Shown: positions 1,907 through 10,077, counted from the stretch's first letter. The stretch: 32,000 nt of DNA from Acaryochloris marina MBIC11017 (GCF_000018105.1 NC_009925.1:1980001-2012000), one strand, 5' to 3'. The notes: generated by a model from the sequence alone, not told the origin. Translations and numbers: made by a program.

Positions 1907-2767
1907 TTAGTAATGGAAGGGGATCGTCAACAAAGGGGCAGCAGTAACCAATAAGCCGCTCCAGGTCCAGGGATAGGAAGGAGGAGCCGTTCCCCTGGGG
2001 GCAAGCAGGGCATCGATTCGCTCTGATAAGCGATGGCCCGTTGCCGTCTGCATGGCGGCACAAATATTTTCCGCAAACTCTGCCGGATAGGGATTGACCA
2101 TCAACAGCAAGGATTCCGCTAGCACCAACGGATCAACCTGCTGGGCAGCCCACTGATCGGCGCGCAATTCCCGCAGCAGCAAGAGTTCTTGCCACAGTTC
2201 TGTGGAATGGGGCAGCCAAGCCGTCAGCCGACGCAGCCAGCCCCACCAGAAAAACCAAAAGGTATCGCGATACTGCTGATGGGCTTGTTCATGGACCAGT
2301 ACTGCGGCTAGCTGATCCGCAGACAGGGCCTGCACTAACCCCTTGGTAATCACTAATTCAGACTGCCAAAACCCGACTTGAGCGGCATAGGGCAAGGCAT
2401 GATCGATTTGGTAGGCTGCATGGCCTTGAATATGGGTTTGGGGACAGGCATAAATGCGCTGTAAGCTCGACCATCCCTCCATCAGGAGCTTGAGATTAAG
2501 GCAGGCCGCTACTCCCACAAATCCAGCAGCGACACCATAACTCCACCCATTTTCTCGAACCCAAACCATATGGCCTTGAGGTCCCATGTATAGAACTGCG
2601 ATCGCAGTCATTAACAACAGCAAGGGGGACCATAAAAAGACCAGTAAATTCCCCTGCCACCTCTGGGCCCAGGTCCATTGGTCTCGATTGGATTCCAGCC
2701 AGCGATAGCCATAGGTTCGGCACAGCCAGGCCAAAGACAAGGCACTGAGAATCATCAGCAAATGCAT
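1907..2767 (-). CDS. M56-family (BlaR1/MecR1-like) membrane zinc metalloprotease, short form with no recognisable sensor domain
   Basis: 286 aa with several hydrophobic helices. The HEXXH motif occurs as VHEQAHQQYRD. The start ATG shares one base with the stop of the upstream BlaI-like gene (TAATG on the minus strand at 2765-2769). Confidence 0.8.
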   Translation of the reverse strand: MHLLMILSALSLAWLCRTYGYRWLESNRDQWTWAQRWQGNLLVFLWSPLLLLMTAIAVLYMGPQGHMVWVRENGWSYGVAAGFVGVAACLNLKLLMEGWSSLQRIYACPQTHIQGHAAYQIDHALPYAAQVGFWQSELVITKGLVQALSADQLAAVLVHEQAHQQYRDTFWFFWWGWLRRLTAWLPHSTELWQELLLLRELRADQWAAQQVDPLVLAESLLLMVNPYPAEFAENICAAMQTATGHRLSERIDALLAPRGTAPPSYPWTWSGLLVTAAPLLTIPFHY

Positions 2768-3186
2768 TACTGATCCTCCCTGGCTTTGCGAGCGGCCCGT
2801 ATCTTATCTGCGATCTCTTCCAGTTGCTCGACGCTGGCCTGATCGAGATGATCGGCAAAAGCAGCAACCGTATCAGGATTCCCGACGGCTAAAAACTGCT
2901 GAAGTTGGTCGTAGGCCCAAAGAGAGTTGGCCTGGGCTCGGGAAACCAGAGGACGCCAAACAAAGCTGCGATTTTGCTTATCGCAAGCTAACCAGCCTTT
3001 TTTAGTCAGGCGATTAAGAACGGTGGTAACGGAGGTGTAGGCCAATTCGCGATCGGGATTGGTCAAAATCTGTTCATGCACCTGTTTGACGGTGGCGGTC
3101 CCTAAATCCCAAATCAAGTTGAGAATTTCGAATTCTAAGGGGCCGAGAGAAAGCTGCTTGGGACGAAAGTCCGGGAGCGATGCCAT
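2767..3186 (-). CDS. BlaI/MecI/CopY-family winged-helix transcriptional repressor
   Basis: 139 aa. LGPLEFEILNLIWDLGTATVKQVHEQI...YTSVTTVLNRLTKKGWL matches the BlaI/CopY penicillinase-repressor fold pattern. It is paired with an M56 protease gene. Confidence 0.85.
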   Translation of the reverse strand: MASLPDFRPKQLSLGPLEFEILNLIWDLGTATVKQVHEQILTNPDRELAYTSVTTVLNRLTKKGWLACDKQNRSFVWRPLVSRAQANSLWAYDQLQQFLAVGNPDTVAAFADHLDQASVEQLEEIADKIRAARKAREDQ

Positions 3187-3205
3187 CGCTGTTATATCCT
3201 GCTGA

Positions 3206-3228
3206 TTGGTTAGCTACTGACCAAGGTA
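3206..3228. promoter_or_regulatory. Candidate operator upstream of the BlaI-like gene
   Basis: Imperfect 19-nt palindrome TTGGTTAGCTACTGACCAA (3206-3224, 7 of 9 arm pairs), overlapping a TAC-N8-GTA dyad (3215-3228). It lies 20-40 nt upstream of the start at 3186. The BlaI/CopY family binds TAC...GTA-type dyads. Confidence 0.25.
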
Positions 3229-3310
3229 ACGTATCGTCTAACGACTAAACGCTTTAAACACAAGACTTTTTAGGATTAACCGCTACTCAGTGCTGCAAAC
3301 CAGAGATTAT

Positions 3311-3724
3311 CTAGTCGAAGACGATAAATGGATTCATCTCAGCCGGAGTCATCCACTCAATGCCATACTTTTCTCGCAAAATCCGTTTCATCACCAACCA
3401 TTGTTGATGGCAGAGTCCCCTCCCGGGGTGGCACAAATCGGCAGCTTTAGGTGAGGTGTTTTGCAGCTCAATCATCCGCTGCCGATGCTCACGATCTACT
3501 TCTTGACGCGCTTGTAATCGCACGTCTTCAAATATTGGCTGCAAGTCAGGATCATCTTCAAGAGGATCATGTAATTCAGAAGTGCCCGATTGATGCGCCA
3601 CTTGCAGTGCATCAATCATCTTGAATCGTTTTTCAAAGGAGAGGTTTTGAAGATAAAACTTCCCTTGCGCTATCGGGCAGCCAGTAACCCGATGGAAAAG
3701 CATGACATCAGAGTTATCTAACAA
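3311..3724 (-). CDS. Hypothetical protein (small-ORF array member F)
   Basis: 137-aa ORF with a conserved-looking C-terminal block GLCHQQWLVMKRILREKYGIEWMTPAEMNPFIVFD. I cannot name a family. Confidence 0.55.
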   Translation of the reverse strand: MLDNSDVMLFHRVTGCPIAQGKFYLQNLSFEKRFKMIDALQVAHQSGTSELHDPLEDDPDLQPIFEDVRLQARQEVDREHRQRMIELQNTSPKAADLCHPGRGLCHQQWLVMKRILREKYGIEWMTPAEMNPFIVFD

Positions 3725-3897
3725 GAGCGAGTATTGAAAAACGTAGTACAGCCCTATGCTAGCTTGCCATTTGCTTAAACAGTTGATGTATCCAAGTGCT
3801 CAAAACACCCACTTTGAAACAACGCCTTGATTTATCGTTTGCTTAAGTCGTGTTTGGTTGTTCCGTATGCTCACAGCAACCAGCGAGTCATTGAGTA

Positions 3898-4257
3898 TTA
3901 GCTGATGCAAACACCAGCATTTCGCTGCTTGGCTAAGTCTATCGCGGAGAGAAAACGCTTCATATATGTCTGAATCCTCGCCGACTGTGCTTTATTACGC
4001 CAAATTTCTTGGGCAATAGCCACAGAATCTGCATAAATCATGTGACACTCAGCAGCAAACAGATCTAATTCCTCAGGGTAAACAAATAAGTCACCATCAT
4101 TGAGTTGGGGGAAGTACCTTGCGCCACGCCGAATCAGTGATTGCGCCCCCCATAACTGTGTACGATATGACTCAAATCCAGCCATATCATATTCAATTGC
4201 ATTGAGATAGGAGTAGGGACCTGAACTTGGATCGAAAAGGTCTATAACAAGGGTCAT
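3898..4257 (-). CDS. Hypothetical protein (small-ORF array member E)
   Basis: 119-aa ORF on the same strand as its neighbours, with a 20-nt gap to the upstream ORF. No recognisable motif. Confidence 0.55.
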   Translation of the reverse strand: MTLVIDLFDPSSGPYSYLNAIEYDMAGFESYRTQLWGAQSLIRRGARYFPQLNDGDLFVYPEELDLFAAECHMIYADSVAIAQEIWRNKAQSARIQTYMKRFLSAIDLAKQRNAGVCIS

Positions 4258-4278
4258 ATTTCCTTTGTGACTTGCACT

Positions 4279-4716
4279 TCAGCAAGAAAGATATGCGTTC
4301 GAATGGAGGCCAATCACTTCAGTTACGATTGCTACGGCGACTAGTCTACCTCCTTCCATAAAGTAGCCTTTTACACCTAACTGAATTCTTGAACAGTGAA
4401 TCTGTCGGCGCATTTCAGGTGACACAATCCACATGGTTGCCATACCAGTCATGGGGACAGGAGTATCTTGAGGAAAAACAGAACCGTCTAAAGCCAAAAA
4501 CTGAGGCCAAATCATATAGATGCCAGTTTCTGAAATATCGTCCCCTTTATACGACCAGTCACAGCGACAGCCCTGATAATATTGGCGACCACCCTCTAGT
4601 AGCAATCGATAACGAACCTTAAAGTCTGGCAACCTACCCGACACTTTGGCATAGCTGGTCATACTAGATACTTTAGTCTTGATTTCTGTATTTATTGGCC
4701 AGTTAAAGTTCAGCAT
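4279..4716 (-). CDS. Hypothetical protein with an EF-Tu domain-III-like beta-barrel signature (small-ORF array member D)
   Basis: The ORF 4279..4773 overlaps the upstream gene. Likely starts are Met20 (4716) or Met38 (4662). FKVRYRLLLEGGRQYYQGCRCDW...GMATMWIV...GVKGYFMEGGRLVAVAIVTEVIGL parallels EF-Tu domain III (F.aeVY.L.k.EGGR...F..GYRPQF...PGD...v.L..P...G.RFAIREGGRTVGAGVV). Confidence 0.5.
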   Translation of the reverse strand: MLNFNWPINTEIKTKVSSMTSYAKVSGRLPDFKVRYRLLLEGGRQYYQGCRCDWSYKGDDISETGIYMIWPQFLALDGSVFPQDTPVPMTGMATMWIVSPEMRRQIHCSRIQLGVKGYFMEGGRLVAVAIVTEVIGLHSNAYLSC

Positions 4717-5278
4717 CACTGATGCTCTGCTGTTGCCGTGCTCGATTACGCACAGCACTATTACAGCCTTCATGCACCAACCTATCGAGTTGCTGACGGG
4801 TGATTTCCTTTGCCACGATGAGTGATTCCTGGACCATTCGATCTTTGCTCGCTAAGCACCGTTTCACTAATTCATCGCTAATTGGCCCAGTTTCAATCGC
4901 CAGGGTTAGTCGTCGCCGTCTCACCAGCCTTTGATGACCGTCGCTCTGAAAGGCTGAATGTGTCGCAATGTGCTCAACTTGATCCTGACTTAAACGATGC
5001 CCAGTCAGGAGGTTCGCAAGTGCCGCTCCAGCCATCGCCTGATCAGGGTCAAGCACAGCCAATTCAATGTATTGCGCCAATTCTTCATTAGCCAAGAACA
5101 AATGCCTATCTAGGATGCGGAGAAATGAAGCATAACGATAGTGTTCAGCATTTTGATCGTCAGAGGACTCAAAAGTCTCATGTTGGCAGGCCAGCTCTTC
5201 TAGAGATAGAAATCCATAAACGAGCCATCGCCGATCATAGCCCAGTAATTTCAATGACTGTTCCGTATCCTGCATCAT
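4703..5278 (-). CDS. Hypothetical, predicted all-helical protein (small-ORF array member C)
   Basis: 191-aa ORF starting with a double Met. No motif recognised. Confidence 0.55.
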   Translation of the reverse strand: MMQDTEQSLKLLGYDRRWLVYGFLSLEELACQHETFESSDDQNAEHYRYASFLRILDRHLFLANEELAQYIELAVLDPDQAMAGAALANLLTGHRLSQDQVEHIATHSAFQSDGHQRLVRRRRLTLAIETGPISDELVKRCLASKDRMVQESLIVAKEITRQQLDRLVHEGCNSAVRNRARQQQSISDAEL

Positions 5279-5364
5279 CGTTGCGTTTATCCGCCCAATA
5301 TCCTAGCTCACCATCACTGGTTCAGAATGCAGCTTCATGAGAAGGAAGTAGATTGTGATAACCT

Positions 5365-5649
5365 TCAGTTCTGAAGCGAGATGCGCAATGGTTTAAGTCC
5401 CGGAGTTCTTGGCTGCCAACCCTTCTGAAGCGCCTCTTCAATGCATGTCACTACAAAGCCTGGGGTGATTTGCCGATATTGTTGATGTTCAGACGGATCA
5501 CTGTAATCCATCTGGACTTCCAATTTTTGGCCTGACGATTCATCATCTATGACAACCAGAATCATAAAGCCACTATCAGGCGACACGACCCAGCGATACC
5601 GGACATCGCCCGTTACTAGCGTTCGACTTTCTTTTTTTGCTAGAGCCAA
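5365..5649 (-). CDS. Hypothetical protein (small-ORF array member B)
   Basis: 94-aa ORF with a TTG start. On the minus strand it is preceded by GAGG five nt upstream (AGAGGTAATCTTG). Confidence 0.5.
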   Translation of the reverse strand: MALAKKESRTLVTGDVRYRWVVSPDSGFMILVVIDDESSGQKLEVQMDYSDPSEHQQYRQITPGFVVTCIEEALQKGWQPRTPGLKPLRISLQN

Positions 5650-5757
5650 GATTACCTCTATCTAATATTTACGATCATCAAATCCAGAATCACTCAAATA
5701 CTTTTTCAACAAGCTTTCCAGGCTTATGGACACCAGAATCATTTTTCCACAGAGTTT

Positions 5758-6516
5758 TCAACAGCAAGAGGAGACCATTCCCAACCCTTGATCAGCAGTA
5801 ACCTGATAGAAAAGCTGAATCTCTTGCAAAAACTCTTGCAGGAATGGATATTGATCTTCTGACCATCCGCCTCGGTAAATTGGTGGATTTATTTTCGCTG
5901 CTTGCTCAAACCGTCGCCGAACCTCTTTCTCACCAATTGCTGATAACACTCGTGAAATTTCTGCCACTTCACTCACGTCCTGGTACCAACAGCAAGGGTA
6001 TGAATCTGTTGGATCAACAGGTTTACCAGCAAAAATATTAACGCGGTTTAAATCATTAGCTACACATATGCAATCCAAATGATTCATCGCTTGACCATTC
6101 CTCAGCACATAGCTGCCCCAATCCCATGCCTGCCCTAAATACAGATATGAACAGTTTTTTTCACTACAAACAATTGAATATAGGCTCTGTTTCCAACGCT
6201 CATAATTCTTTGGGCAGTCACGTTTTAGGTCAACTAACATTTCAACGTCCCATTCCGTCCACACATTACAAACCTCATTTGCATCTGATGTGATTTCATC
6301 CAGGATTTGCCTTTGCTCTAATGTCAATTCGGAAATATCTGCAATCAAAGGTATATCAGTATTTTTAGGAGCTAGCTCTGCAATTATGTCTTCATAAATC
6401 TCTAAATCTTTCTGGAGAATGTCTAATCCAGTTTTAGTAATTTGTCTTAGCAATGCAGTAACTGACATATTTTTAAAAGCTGCTAATTCTGCCCAATATA
6501 TCTTTTGCACAACCAT
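5758..6516 (-). CDS. Hypothetical protein with a YfbM/DUF1877-like C-terminal region (small-ORF array member A)
   Basis: 252-aa ORF. LYLGQAWDWGSYVLRNG and EVRRRFEQAAKINPPIYRGGWSEDQYPFLQEFLQEIQLFYQVTADQGLG resemble, as I recall it, E. coli YfbM (LDIDKRWDFLHFGLTG ... ELRKQF...IYPG...LISAYRRMLRQGN). GC is markedly low in hand-counted blocks. Confidence 0.55.
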   Translation of the reverse strand: MVVQKIYWAELAAFKNMSVTALLRQITKTGLDILQKDLEIYEDIIAELAPKNTDIPLIADISELTLEQRQILDEITSDANEVCNVWTEWDVEMLVDLKRDCPKNYERWKQSLYSIVCSEKNCSYLYLGQAWDWGSYVLRNGQAMNHLDCICVANDLNRVNIFAGKPVDPTDSYPCCWYQDVSEVAEISRVLSAIGEKEVRRRFEQAAKINPPIYRGGWSEDQYPFLQEFLQEIQLFYQVTADQGLGMVSSCC

Positions 6517-6557
6517 AGTCGCTTGCTTTCACATACTTCAACCATCAAATTGACGCT

Positions 6558-6594
6558 GCTCCATAGGGCTTGCTAGACTCAAGCCCTATGGAGC
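6558..6594 (+). promoter_or_regulatory. Perfect 15-bp inverted repeat (7-nt loop) immediately upstream of the macro-domain gene; operator, RBS-sequestering hairpin or terminator-like element
   Basis: GCTCCATAGGGCTTG (6558-6572), loop CTAGACT, CAAGCCCTATGGAGC (6580-6594), followed by TTTT. The right arm contains GGAG (6590-6593), 7 nt before the TTG start at 6601. The loop contains TAGACT, 18 nt after TTGACG (6550-6555). Confidence 0.5.
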
Positions 6595-6600
6595 TTTTAG

Positions 6601-7191
6601 TTGACAAAATTAATCCTTGTAGCGCCTGCAGCTAAGCTGTACGGGGCGTTTCGCAAATCCTTCGAGCATTTACCTAACGTTGAAGTCGTTCATAATTATT
6701 TTGAGTGGTTAACCGAGTTTGACTGCCTGGTGAGTCCTGCTAATTCCTTCGGCATGATGGATGGCGGTATGGACGCCGCGATCACGAAATTTTTCGGCGT
6801 GGAACTGGAATGGAACGTTAAATCCCAAATCCTAGAAACATATTTGGGAGAACAGCCCATTGGCACCTCCATGATCGTTGAGACTGGACATCCCCAACAT
6901 CCTTACTTAGCCCATACCCCAACCATGCGGGTGCCCATGATTATCAAAGGCACAGATATTCCCTATAGCGCTATGTGGGCCATGTTGCTAGCAGTCCGAC
7001 AACATAATCAACAGTCCCAAACCCCGATACGGAGTATTGCCTGTCCTGGTTTAGGAACAGGGATTGGCCGAGTTCCCTATGCCGAAGCCGCTCGGCAGAT
7101 GGCTGTTGCCTATGACCACTTTCTCTATCCCCCCAAAGCGCTCAATTGCTTCGTTGCCGCATCCAGACAACTGCAAATTTGGGAAGGTTAA
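6601..7191 (+). CDS. Macro-domain protein (putative ADP-ribose / O-acetyl-ADP-ribose hydrolase)
   Basis: 196 aa. VSPANSFGMMDGGMDAAI followed later by CPGLGTGIGRVP fits the macro-domain ADP-ribose-binding loops. TTG is the first codon after an in-frame TAG (6598-6600), and there is no ATG before the conserved core. Confidence 0.75.
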   Translation: MTKLILVAPAAKLYGAFRKSFEHLPNVEVVHNYFEWLTEFDCLVSPANSFGMMDGGMDAAITKFFGVELEWNVKSQILETYLGEQPIGTSMIVETGHPQHPYLAHTPTMRVPMIIKGTDIPYSAMWAMLLAVRQHNQQSQTPIRSIACPGLGTGIGRVPYAEAARQMAVAYDHFLYPPKALNCFVAASRQLQIWEG

Positions 7192-7356
7192 GGGCGCCCA
7201 TTCCGTTAGCAATTCATCCATCTCCATGTACGACAGACTGTCGTTTGACTTTTTCAGAACGCTTCACCCAGGATAGTTGTGGCAAATGGTTTGCCAGTCA
7301 AATTTGAAGTTGTTTTTGACTTGCGATCTCATCTCACTCCACTGGGGAATCTGATT

Positions 7357-7848
7357 ATGACTTCTGTTCGGAAAGGGGCTTTACTAGCGGTTTATATCGG
7401 GGTCGGGACTTTGGTGACACCCCAAATTGTGCAATCCCACCATACTCAGCCCCAAACCGTCTCATCCGCCGATCAGAAAACCAAACATCATCACCACAAG
7501 CACCATAAACAACTCGAAATTTCCGCCAATCAAGCCCCACCCACGGTCGAGTTAGTCGCTCATCCTGATCAGGTCCAGGGCTGGAATTTAGAACTAAAGG
7601 TCACTAACTTTAACTTTGCCCCCACCAAAGTCAATGCCCCGAGTAAAATCTCCGAAGGCCATGCTCACCTGTATATCAATGACAAAAAAGTAACTCGTCT
7701 TTACGGCAATTGGTACTATCTCTCTGAGTTACCCACAGGCACGAACACCCTCAAAGTCACCCTCAACAGCAACGGCCATGAAGCCCTCGTGCGTCGAGGC
7801 CAACCCATCAGCGACACTGCAGTGATTCAGGTTGCGCCCCGACCCTAA
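7357..7848 (+). CDS. Secreted/periplasmic His-rich protein, possibly metal-binding
   Basis: The ORF is open from GTG 7279. ATG 7357 (MTSVRKGALLAVYIGVGTLV...) gives a signal-peptide-like N-terminus and is preceded by GGGGA. It has a His cluster KTKHHHHKHHK and EGHAHLYINDKKV in a beta-rich C-terminal domain. Its stop lies 1 nt before the next ATG. Confidence 0.7.
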   Translation: MTSVRKGALLAVYIGVGTLVTPQIVQSHHTQPQTVSSADQKTKHHHHKHHKQLEISANQAPPTVELVAHPDQVQGWNLELKVTNFNFAPTKVNAPSKISEGHAHLYINDKKVTRLYGNWYYLSELPTGTNTLKVTLNSNGHEALVRRGQPISDTAVIQVAPRP

Positions 7849-7849
7849 A

Positions 7850-7981
7850 ATGCTAGACCTGTTGCTCGTCACAGCCCTGGGATTTGTCGGCAGCTTTGGC
7901 CATTGCGTCGGTATGTGTGGACCCTTAGCCGCCAGCTTTGCCCTGACCTCCGGTGGATCCCGAACGTGCGACAACAACTAA
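7850..7981 (+). pseudogene. Detached N-terminal fragment (HCxGMCGP motif) of the downstream DsbD_2-type gene; apparent 1-nt frameshift
   Basis: ATG 7850 lies 1 nt after the upstream TAA (7846-7848). My translation is MLDLLLVTALGFVGSFGHCVGMCGPLAASFALTSGGSRTCDNN*, with TAA at 7979-7981. The next conserved block of this family (LLLNLGRSLSYGLIGAAIG) continues in the -1 frame, in ORF 7903..9069. Confidence 0.5.
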
Positions 7982-9069
7982 CCTTTCATCTTCTGCTCAA
8001 TCTGGGACGAAGTCTAAGTTATGGCCTGATCGGAGCAGCCATTGGTGCCCTTAGTTCTGTCCTGGTTGCGGGGGGAGAGCTGGCGGGCATCGATAGTGTT
8101 CTTCGTCGTAGCATTGCCTTTTTGATGGGTGGCTTGTTGATCTGGCTGGGAGTTCGGCAAATTCGTCCCGGCTGGCTACCTAAACTACCCTTGCCGCACC
8201 CATTATTGAAATTGGGGCTGCATGAGCGTTTCAATCGAGCCATGGCAGGGTTGGCCCATCAACCCCACTGGTGGACGCCTGCGTTACTGGGCATGGTTTG
8301 GGGACTCATTCCCTGTGGCTTTCTGTATGCAGCCCAAATTAAAGCCGCAGCCACAGGGGACTGGTTACTCGGAAGTGCCACGATGCTGTGTTTCGGGTTG
8401 GGAACGATGCCAACCTTGTTAGGAGTGGGGCTTTCCACTGCCATTCTTAGCCAGGATCGACGCAGCCAGCTCTTTCTGTTAGGGGGCTGGCTGATGCTGA
8501 TCATTGGTGTGCTGACCGTCCTCAGAACGGGAGAAATGCAGGACTACAGCAGCCATACCGCCTTGTTGTTATTAATGTTGGCCCTCCTCGCCCGTCCCAT
8601 CCAACCTTTGTGGTCAGCTCCACTGCACTATCGACGGTTATTGGGGGTTGGGGCCTTTATCCTCTCACTCATCCATGTATTGCGGGTACTCGACCATTCC
8701 TTTCAGTGGTCTCTCACAGCGGTTCCCTTTATGCTGCCCCTCCATCAAGCAGGTCTCTGGACAGGTATCGCTGCATTAACCTTGCTCATTCCGTTAGCTA
8801 CAACCAGTACCAATTGGATGGTGCAACGATTAGGTTCCCATTGGCGACGACTCCATCTTCTCAGTATCCCTGCTCTCCTATTAGCAGGCAGCCATACGGT
8901 GATGATCGGATCCCATTATTTAGGGGGGCTGGAATGGACAGGGGTGCATTTGGGGAGAACTGTTGCGATCACAACGGCAATCCTCCTGGTTTTACTGATC
9001 CGCTGCCGTTGGGTATGGGCCTTGTTCTCACTGGAGAAATTTTATGGTGCGTCTTCTCCATTGCGGTAG
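7903..9069 (+). CDS. Membrane protein: DsbD_2/TauE-like TM domain fused to an MsrQ/YedZ-like (ferric-reductase-type) heme-b domain; N-terminus apparently lost by frameshift
   Basis: 388-aa ORF. TTG is the first in-frame start and the frame is open from 7849. NLGRSLSYGLIGAAIG, GLIPCGFLYAAQ and FGLGTMPTLLG fit the DsbD_2 type. The C-terminal third has RRLLGVGAFILSLIHVL...LIPLATTSTNWMVQRLGSHWRRLHLLS...GSHTV. This matches the MsrQ/YedZ signature as I recall it (..TSTN..RRLG..W..LH.L..). Confidence 0.7.
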   Translation: MRRYVWTLSRQLCPDLRWIPNVRQQLTFHLLLNLGRSLSYGLIGAAIGALSSVLVAGGELAGIDSVLRRSIAFLMGGLLIWLGVRQIRPGWLPKLPLPHPLLKLGLHERFNRAMAGLAHQPHWWTPALLGMVWGLIPCGFLYAAQIKAAATGDWLLGSATMLCFGLGTMPTLLGVGLSTAILSQDRRSQLFLLGGWLMLIIGVLTVLRTGEMQDYSSHTALLLLMLALLARPIQPLWSAPLHYRRLLGVGAFILSLIHVLRVLDHSFQWSLTAVPFMLPLHQAGLWTGIAALTLLIPLATTSTNWMVQRLGSHWRRLHLLSIPALLLAGSHTVMIGSHYLGGLEWTGVHLGRTVAITTAILLVLLIRCRWVWALFSLEKFYGASSPLR

Positions 9070-9619
9070 TTTAGCCTTCTTAGCAGTTGGATTATTGGGC
9101 GGCCCCAGCCAGGCCCATACGGTCAAAGCATCCGACTCAGTTGCCGTCACCTTTCATTTAGAACCTGATCACAATCCAAGGGCAGGAGACCCTGCTCAAG
9201 TCTGGTTCGTCCTTACCCAAAAGGGGGGCAGTACCATCCCTCTCTCCCAATGCGACTGCCATCTGCAGGTGATTGCAGAGGAAAATGGACAGACAATTGC
9301 CCAACCGCCTTTAACCGCCGTCTCCGCAGAGCAATACCAAAATATTCCTGGCGCTGATGTGACGTTCCCAAAACCGGGGGCATACCAATTGAGCATTCAA
9401 GGCCAGCCACAAACAGGCGATGCATTCCAGCCATTTCAGTTTAGTTTTCCCGTCACTGTCGCTAAAGGCAGTAGCCCAAAGCCCTCTCCACCTGTCCAGT
9501 CAACAGATACGCCCTTGTCTTCGTCAAAATCAGGTCTACCCAAGGTTGTATGGATCAGCATCAGTATTGGCGTAGGACTCAGTTTCGTGATGCTAGTTCT
9601 TCGACTGCGCAAAAAATAG
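9044..9619 (+). CDS. Secreted protein with a C-terminal membrane anchor; predicted mature N-terminal His (possible Cu/metal-binding Ig-like domain)
   Basis: 191 aa, overlapping the upstream gene by 26 nt. Signal peptide MVRLLHCGSLAFLAVGLLGGPSQA|HTVKAS. It has a beta-rich domain, a Pro/Ser linker, a terminal TM helix VVWISISIGVGLSFVMLVL, then RLRKK. Confidence 0.7.
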   Translation: MVRLLHCGSLAFLAVGLLGGPSQAHTVKASDSVAVTFHLEPDHNPRAGDPAQVWFVLTQKGGSTIPLSQCDCHLQVIAEENGQTIAQPPLTAVSAEQYQNIPGADVTFPKPGAYQLSIQGQPQTGDAFQPFQFSFPVTVAKGSSPKPSPPVQSTDTPLSSSKSGLPKVVWISISIGVGLSFVMLVLRLRKK

Positions 9620-9678: not shown

Positions 9679-10077
9679 TTACCCTTCTTCCAAGTAAAAC
9701 CGGTCGTTGCTCTGGACAGCATCACGCAGAATTAATTCTAGAGCCCTCAGATCCCATAAAACCCAATGGACCCCCTCCGGACTTTTATCGACTTCTGGAT
9801 AAGCCAGTAGATAATTCAAAAGCTTTTGAACGGTGTCCAGCCCTTGGTTAGGGTCATACCATTCAGGACTAGTTTCTAATGCTTTTCCGCCATCGTTTTC
9901 TTCAAGCATAAAGGCACTGAGAGGTGTAATGTTTAAGTCTTCTGCAATATCTTCCAACAAAAGACTCGCAGCAGGCAGATTGCCCCCAAACATCAGCTCT
10001 TCACCTTTGAGATCCATCTCAGCAGGTAAAGCACAGAATCCAGTGTTTTCTAGAACGATATCTAGGCATCTAGACAT
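9679..10077 (-). CDS. Small, strongly acidic hypothetical protein
   Basis: 132-aa ORF. By hand count it has about 26 Asp+Glu versus 8 Lys+Arg. No family named. Confidence 0.55.
   Translation of the reverse strand: MSRCLDIVLENTGFCALPAEMDLKGEELMFGGNLPAASLLLEDIAEDLNITPLSAFMLEENDGGKALETSPEWYDPNQGLDTVQKLLNYLLAYPEVDKSPEGVHWVLWDLRALELILRDAVQSNDRFYLEEG

Follow-up and report, generated by a model that had tools for sequence, protein, structure and literature searches.

A strain-variable islet of six small orphan genes and a macro-domain gene in Acaryochloris marina MBIC11017, a possible bank of stand-alone conflict genes

We analyzed a 32,000-nucleotide (nt) window of the Acaryochloris marina MBIC11017 genome (GCF_000018105.1, NC_009925.1:1980001-2012000; positions are counted from its first letter), and in particular a run of six small open reading frames (ORFs), named ORF1 to ORF6, that occupies positions 3311 to 6516 on the minus strand. 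The six ORFs share a single insert of about 3.95 kb with a macro-domain gene that is transcribed away from them; the insert extends from about 3272 to about 7227, with the right-hand junction uncertain by about 15 nt. This insert is very probably a horizontally acquired, strain-variable accessory islet, lodged at a recombination hot spot, namely the divergent promoter region that separates a BlaI-like repressor/M48 peptidase pair from an operon for a His-rich protein and a DsbD-like protein. The islet was inserted once, in one Acaryochloris lineage. The single most likely reading of its content, to which we hold tentatively, is a bank of stand-alone neutralisers combined with an eraser of ADP-ribose. 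The features discussed here are collected in Table 1.

The boundaries of the islet were defined with a set of comparison loci (designated L and a number), which are relatives of the neighbouring M48 peptidase onto which the window proteins were mapped. The Acaryochloris metagenome-assembled genome (MAG) L020 presents an empty site, in which homology with the window is lost after ...CTGTCGTAC (7228) and sets in again at AAAAAGTCTTGT (about 3271, ±15 nt). Comparison at the level of single bases gave identical junctions for L029, L030 and L034. Since the junctions of the empty site enclose the macro gene as well as ORF1 to ORF6, the macro gene belongs to the same insert and is not one of its flanks, as a first-pass annotation of the window had assumed it to be. 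The suggestion of the same annotation that the stretch might be an indel is borne out: it is an insertion relative to related genomes, both of other Acaryochloris and of more distant cyanobacteria. The BlaI-like gene adjoins the His-rich/DsbD_2-Ferric_reduct operon, in divergent orientation, in the Acaryochloris MAGs L020 and L021 and in the distant cyanobacteria L022, L023 and L028, with a spacing of 0.2 to 1 kb in these five loci versus 4.1 kb in the window. The insert ends a few tens of bases past the stop codon of the macro gene on one side and past that of ORF1 on the other, and both of its ends are thus gene 3' ends. No target-site duplication, integrase or attC site was found at the insert.

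The islet occurs with the same junctions and the same gene order in at least six further Acaryochloris assemblies (L029 to L034) and is absent from L018 to L021. The first-pass annotation had named synteny and conservation of the six ORFs in related genomes as evidence that would speak against its view of the array. Both were observed within one subclade, under purifying selection, and the islet is nevertheless accessory in the genus. Its content also varies between the strains that have it, namely that of the window and L029 to L034. It is partly deleted in L034, where ORF2 is gone and ORF1 is reduced to its last 35 codons, while the other four ORFs are kept and the macro gene runs off the end of the contig. 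In L017, a stop-ridden C-terminal remnant of a divergent ORF1 lies beside BlaI, the rest of the islet has been replaced, and the macro gene is absent. The flanks of L017 are nearer to those of the window than are the flanks of L030, L031 and L034.

Other genes were found upstream of BlaI in the strains that lack the intact islet. In L018 (6001-7488), the site holds a gene for an AIPR abortive-infection protein (E 7.7e-52) along with a MazE-like fragment; this is the sole locus where the interval between these two flanks is filled by a different insert. L019 (6883-7673) has a TacA/GNAT toxin-antitoxin pair, made up of a TacA antitoxin (E 1.1e-30) and a GNAT-family gene, along with a trypsin-like protease, and L017 (7677-8132) has a NADAR protein (E 4.7e-41) along with a YbjQ protein. 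NADAR, like the macro domain, is linked to ADP-ribose metabolism. This varied cargo, several items of which are of conflict type, points to a recombination hot spot that collects accessory genes. Hot spots of this sort, flanked by conserved genes and filled with different accessory or conflict genes from strain to strain, are a familiar pattern, ordinary in kind. The site resembles the defence-island type of hot spot between core genes in that its cargo differs by strain (none, AIPR with a MazE-like fragment, TacA/GNAT, NADAR, or the islet), in its GC content, which lies below that of the surroundings, and in the lack of a dedicated mobility gene. It is unlike such hot spots in that the cargo of the islet includes no catalogued defence system and that nearly all of its proteins are small and lack enzymatic signatures. 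An islet at a hot spot accounts for the odd composition of the stretch, and the impression of a mystery operon is gone.

All six ORFs were recovered at the coordinates of the first-pass annotation, and two of their starts were revised. Alignment with orthologues placed the most likely start of ORF3 at 4662 (MTSYAK, 127 residues), so that it no longer overlaps ORF4. Sister-strain orthologues likewise placed the most likely start of ORF6 at 6468 (MSVTA, 236 residues), because the extension upstream of this position holds stop codons in the sister strains. The spacers between the ORFs then measure 108, 86, 40, 21 and 173 nt, near the range of 20 to 173 nt given before. In an all-against-all profile-profile comparison (hhalign), no pair exceeded 2.4% probability; at this sensitivity the six ORFs are unrelated to one another, as had been claimed. 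None of them carries a housekeeping signature, again in agreement with the earlier annotation. All six products are predicted to be soluble (no hydrophobic 19-residue segment) and five of the six are acidic. With respect to the proposal that some of the genes have their own promoters, a scan for promoter-like sites returned 4 of them versus 7.5 in shuffled sequence, i.e. fewer than in the shuffled control.

The low GC content ascribed to the stretch is real but only modest, the region having 44.1% GC versus 48.8% elsewhere in the window. Per gene, GC averages 45.4% for the islet ORFs versus 49.4% (Mann-Whitney p = 0.005), and the mean GC content of third codon positions (GC3) is 42.1% versus 49.0% in the 28 other genes of the window (Mann-Whitney p = 0.0015). 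ORF6 is the composition outlier and the lowest-GC gene of the islet (40% GC, GC3 34%), and the lowest-GC 3.2-kb stretch of the window begins at 3501. The first-pass annotation had also pointed to the lack of HIP1 octamers between 2606 and 10217. Such a gap does exist (the sites are at 2598 and 10218), but it is not significant and has no weight as an argument because 11 sites in 32 kb give a chance of about 60% of at least one gap of at least 7.6 kb.

The ratio of non-synonymous to synonymous substitution rates (dN/dS) was computed against the orthologues in three strains. It ranges from 0.21 to 0.45 over the six ORFs (ORF1, 0.21-0.22; ORF2, 0.23-0.34; ORF3, 0.21-0.26; ORF4, 0.22-0.31; ORF5, 0.23-0.45; ORF6, 0.31-0.41), versus 0.09-0.14 for the macro gene and 0.03-0.15 for most flanking genes, with values of up to 0.22 for the His-rich gene and of 0.08-0.22 over the His-rich/DsbD operon. 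The six ORFs are thus translated and constrained, yet they evolve several times faster than their neighbours; judged from these alignments, they are real genes under relaxed constraint. Between the window and L029, L030 and L034, the synonymous divergence (dS) of most islet genes is mostly 0.17-0.44, versus 0.45-0.90 for the flanking core genes. This lower dS could reflect a different codon usage or a more recent exchange of the islet between strains.

ORF1 belongs to a family of 631 representative clusters (50% identity, E<=1e-3), mostly of proteins of 70 to 160 residues, with the conserved motif LHDPxEDDP ... RGxCHxxW ... GIxWxTPAEMNPxxxFD. No match to ORF1 was found in Pfam, NCBIfam, PADLOC or PHROG. 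Its AlphaFold2 model, computed from an alignment of 45 sequences, is all-alpha with a mean predicted local distance difference test score (pLDDT) of 97.1 and a predicted TM-score (pTM) of 0.87, and Foldseek returned no match to this model in PDB or BFVD. ORF1 thus represents a widespread family of small proteins without a Pfam entry and with a highly confident fold without a match, which makes it a candidate for a new domain or fold. The sole sequence hint is a weak resemblance, not significant, between the start of the ORF1 protein and the N-terminal domain of EF-Ts (E 0.028). Domain fusions in long members of the family (Mrr_N, TPR, Kunitz) were also considered and gave no coherent functional hint. 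A relative from Janthinobacterium (hhalign 99.4%) stands at the end of an array of co-directional genes, among them Tdi1 and contact-dependent inhibition (CDI) immunity genes, near PAAR, VRR-NUC and type VI (T6) immunity genes.

ORF6 is the only one of the six ORFs with a named family. It passes the gathering score of PF08974 (DUF1877) with 37 bits, where 22 are required (E 4.7e-9; the match covers profile positions 43-161 of 163), and six of its homologues have a precomputed DUF1877 domain. The Escherichia coli member of this family, YfbM (1RYL), ranks second and third in a fold search with the ORF6 model; the model is of low confidence (pLDDT 61), and the fold search is therefore weakly informative. 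ORF6 differs from YfbM by about 100 extra N-terminal residues. Word-indexed homology searches with ORF6 and ORF1 returned only the Acaryochloris orthologues and one homologue of ORF6 (52%). The latter lies in a run of small genes with Barstar, the remnant of an RHH/PIN toxin-antitoxin pair, Uma2 and DUF6508.

ORF3 has relatives on mobile elements of other bacteria. It is similar to a gene on a Leptospira plasmid (tblastn, 43.6% identity, E 6e-20), which comes after an RHH-PIN pair, and to an ORF found between dfrA1 and aadA5 on enterobacterial plasmids (tblastn, 30.5% identity, E 2e-9), and the ORF3 alignment shows conserved motifs. The ORF between dfrA1 and aadA5 (L014 5956-6420) is part of class 1 integrons, which are carried by IncC plasmids and further conjugative plasmids in Klebsiella, E. 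coli, Salmonella and Providencia. ORF3 thus ties a cyanobacterial gene to an uncharacterised cassette that travels with resistance genes on clinical plasmids. A dfrA1-gcuC array has been described in the literature (PMC7695199). ORF3 resembles the gcu cassettes in its relationship to the ORF that follows dfrA1, which may be gcuC, and the islet is unlike these integron cassettes in having neither attC sites nor an integrase. One further relative of ORF3 was found in IMG/VR, beside SRAP and a gene with a Glyco_hydro_19 domain that is possibly an endolysin.

ORF2 was found only in Acaryochloris islets, with orthologues that are 87-89% identical. It gave no family match and no match in plasmids, phages or viral contigs. 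ORF4, characterized by the conserved motif NTEHYRYA, is similar over residues 8-100 to a hypothetical protein on a plasmid of Chondrinema litorale (30%, E 7e-8). ORF5 has the motifs YRW ... GWxPxxPG and is weakly similar to proteins annotated as hypothetical on plasmids of Streptomyces (34%, E 0.05). Neither ORF4 nor ORF5 has a match in Pfam, and sequence and profile searches of PDB with ORF1, ORF3, ORF4, ORF5, ORF6 and the macro protein revealed nothing significant.

Along all of its 196 residues, the macro protein shares 48-53% identity with the product of a macro gene that lies between stf and tfa of Gifsy-1, SEN4/5 and Escherichia phage-plasmids, an identity that is unusually high for a pair from a cyanobacterium and enterobacterial phages. 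The Gifsy-1 gene (STM2588.1n) differs in encoding a protein of 274 residues with a C-terminal extension, as part of a tail-fibre module, whereas the copy in the window is free-standing. This identity across phyla to a gene of a prophage tail-fibre module is worth following up, as are the ORF1 family with its fold and the link of ORF3 to an integron cassette. In the Gifsy-1 record, a protein of Acaryochloris marina is itself named as a similar sequence. A DarTG-like toxin-antitoxin pair was considered and rejected, as the macro protein matches DarG only at E 0.043 and has no DarT partner. Just upstream of the macro start codon, in the central region of the islet, a perfect 15-bp palindrome with a 7-nt loop (6558-6594) is followed by TTTTAGTT. 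Sister strains keep only the 6-bp core of this palindrome, and the full hairpin is specific to the strain. A conserved function of the full hairpin is thus doubtful.

We propose the following reading of the islet, which is a self-contained unit. Its six small genes encode soluble, mostly acidic proteins from six unrelated families, and the central region of 132 nt very probably drives the macro gene in one direction and the string of six in the other. Transcription would be largely as one message. The six proteins would not cooperate; each alone could be a neutraliser of the binding type, like an orphan immunity protein or an antidote, directed at effectors from competitors or mobile elements, while the macro enzyme would remove ADP-ribose marks. 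The hot spot would then harbour a small bank of conflict genes. Two observations suggest that each gene acts on its own. Of 58 loci from outside Acaryochloris with one of the seven islet families, none has another, and L034 keeps the rest of the islet without ORF2 and most of ORF1. An immunity role is a reasonable guess. Confirmation of the neutraliser reading would provide several orphan families with a function in a single step. The first-pass annotation had likened the array to orphan immunity-gene arrays and to defence islets. This comparison is favoured by the indel, by the conflict genes upstream of BlaI in sister lineages and by the two relatives in immunity-type company, those of ORF1 and ORF6, and it is weakened by the lack of any immunity-family match among the six ORFs.

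The closest known counterpart would be the heterogeneous polyimmunity loci, which a survey describes as co-directional, structurally unrelated and strain-variable (Zhang, Iyer, Aravind et al., Biol Direct 2012, PMC3482391). Relative to this description, the islet is similar in having at least four tandem, co-directional genes for small, unrelated and soluble proteins (six ORFs of 94-236 residues, spacers of 21-173 nt), probably transcribed as one message, in its variability between strains, in the absence of a toxin gene inside it, and in the relative of ORF1 in a bona fide Tdi1/CDI array. It is dissimilar in containing no described immunity family and no adjacent recombinase, in including the divergent macro enzyme, and in that the wider sample of ORF1 relatives revealed no sign of an association with toxins. 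It is a bold and rather improbable proposition that the islet represents a heterogeneous polyimmunity locus, the first extended one seen in a cyanobacterium, composed entirely of undescribed immunity families and equipped with a macro protein that reverses the action of ADP-ribosylating toxins. If true, this would provide a first function for DUF1877/YfbM, for the ORF1 family with its 631 clusters and for the ORF that travels with dfrA1 in clinical integrons.

Several results weigh against a bank of neutralisers. None of the six ORFs matches a Pfam Imm, SUKH or SuFu family (E<=1), a PADLOC entry or an NCBIfam immunity model, and none belongs to a recognised immunity family (SUKH, SuFu, Imm1-74, CdiI, Barstar); the search of Imm and SUKH families, which the first-pass annotation had recommended, thus came back empty, with DUF1877 in ORF6 as the only hit. 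The main text of the 2012 survey (PMC3482391) makes no mention of DUF1877, and extended polyimmunity loci from cyanobacteria were not reported in that survey. The 32-kb window holds no toxin gene, secretion system or recombinase. Polymorphic toxins and their delivery systems (Rhs, CdiA, type VI secretion system) are absent from the window and its flanks, and no toxin, integrase or transposase family is among the Pfam families listed for the rest of the window, as had been noticed before. To sample the context of ORF1 relatives, 48 metagenome loci were fetched, and 115 neighbours from 31 of them were scanned. No Pfam family occurs more than twice among these neighbours, and no toxin or immunity family is found among the 25 families listed for them. 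They are instead a mixture of housekeeping, restriction-modification and phage genes, including a phage portal gene. One ORF1 relative lies in a long array of small genes headed by ThyA and DHFR, which is possibly, at a guess, of phage origin. The contexts of the ORF3, ORF4 and ORF5 relatives are uninformative about an association with toxins or immunity proteins. Finally, the islet is stably inherited in its subclade, unlike the fastest-turning immunity loci.

Other explanations were weighed against the bank of neutralisers, the first two of which are serious competitors. One, which we regard as somewhat unlikely, is that the hot spot works as an accessory junk drawer that gathers small mobile genes of unrelated functions (regulators, stress proteins, niche factors) under weak selection or in slow decay. 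It would explain why five of the six ORFs have no family and ORF6 nothing more than a domain of unknown function, why the contexts of the ORF1, ORF4 and ORF5 relatives are heterogeneous and mostly ordinary, and why dN/dS exceeds that of the flanks and L034 is already without ORF2 and most of ORF1. It is harder to reconcile with dN/dS values well under 1 for all six ORFs across several strains, with the AIPR, TacA/GNAT and NADAR genes upstream of BlaI in other strains, and with the two families (ORF1, ORF6) that were seen in immunity-type company. A role in phage conflict is unlikely as well, and a little more so. Here the islet would serve anti-phage defence or be a phage-derived anti-defence islet, its macro protein and some of the small proteins being protective or former prophage morons. 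The similarity of the macro protein to the tail-fibre-module gene of Gifsy-1, SEN4/5 and the phage-plasmids, its phrog_2613 match, the AIPR gene at the same site in L018, the ORF3 relative on an IMG/VR contig, and the restriction-modification and phage portal genes among the neighbours of ORF1 relatives are all in its favour. However, ORF1 to ORF6 have no match in PADLOC (PADLOC-DB 2.0, E<=1), by which a catalogued anti-phage defence system is rejected, and the macro protein lacks the DarT partner mentioned above. A prophage or its remnant is rejected too: tblastn with the six ORFs gave 0 matches in 50,697 phage records, their PHROG matches are all at E>=0.1, and only the macro gene has phage relatives. 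IMG/VR contains no relatives of ORF1, ORF2, ORF4, ORF5 or ORF6, and phage structural or integrase genes are absent nearby.

That the macro protein and the six small proteins make up one cooperating system, a new machine acquired as a unit, is very unlikely. The single pair of junctions, the compact divergent layout with its own central control region and the gene order kept in the six further assemblies would fit such a system, but no two of the seven families co-occur in the 58 other loci, four ORFs persist in L034 without ORF2 and most of ORF1, and the macro protein evolves three times slower than the ORFs. Least probable by far is a degenerate integron cassette array, that is, a cluster of attC sites without an integrase, although the genes are small, unrelated and co-directional with short spacers and the relative of ORF3 is a class 1 integron cassette. 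No attC core pair (RYYYAAC ... GTTRRRY, 55-141 nt apart) was found on either strand of 3187-7278, a result on which we rejected this candidate. Moreover, the spacers hold no repeated imperfect palindromes, those between ORF3 and ORF2 (21 nt) and between ORF4 and ORF3 (40 nt) are too short for an attC site, and no intI or integrase family is present among the Pfam results for the window.

Table 1. Positions of the islet genes, the central region and the flanking features in the window.
Feature	Positions	Strand	Description
M48/BlaR-like peptidase	1907-2767	-	Peptidase_M48 E 3.9e-6
BlaI-like repressor	2767-3186	-	Penicillinase_R E 1.7e-29
ORF1	3311-3724	-	137 aa; acidic, soluble
ORF2	3898-4257	-	119 aa; acidic, soluble
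ORF3	4279-4662 (first called 4279-4773)	-	127 aa; basic
ORF4	4703-5278	-	191 aa; acidic, soluble
ORF5	5365-5649	-	94 aa; acidic, soluble
ORF6	5758-6468 (first called 5758-6516, 252 aa)	-	236 aa; isoelectric point (pI) 4.4
Central region	6469-6600		132 nt between the two divergent transcription units of the islet
Macro-domain protein	6601-7191	+	196 aa; transcribed away from the six ORFs; Pfam Macro E 8.4e-14, phrog_2613 E 7.4e-68
Palindrome ACGACAGnCTGTCGT	7230-7244		just outside the islet, upstream of the His-rich gene
Core operon	7279-9619	+	His-rich 189-aa protein; DsbD_2/Ferric_reduct fusion; 191-aa ORF with one strongly hydrophobic segment

The genes on both sides of the islet are conserved. 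The BlaI/M48 pair, which forms the core on one side of the hot spot, is kept in 12 of 12 related loci, and its divergent arrangement with the His-rich/DsbD_2-Ferric_reduct operon is conserved across cyanobacteria (window, L020 to L023, L028). The palindrome ACGACAGnCTGTCGT is found at the same position in L018, L020, L021 and L022, with or without an insert, and we infer that the BlaI-like repressor probably uses it as its operator. Taken together, the BlaI/M48 pair and the His-rich/DsbD set look like a metal- or redox-responsive regulon, and the islet has likely moved the repressor gene 4 kb from its putative operator.

Two further variable features were observed in this region. A small orphan ORF on the minus strand (9679-10077; 132 aa, pI 4.05, GC 44%), without a family match, gave no tblastn match in L018, L029 and L030 despite the common surrounding genes, and is a separate strain-variable gene. 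By eye, this ORF and ORF2 both resemble the C-terminus of YfbM; a hidden paralogy of the two was considered and is unsupported by profile comparison. Finally, L029 to L034 carry an extra cassette of three genes between M48 and OppC (e.g. L029 12716-14081), which is not present in the window. It encodes proteins of 95, 292 and 66 aa, the second of which is MbnB_TglH_ChrH/DUF692-like, and represents a second indel at 1 kb from the islet.

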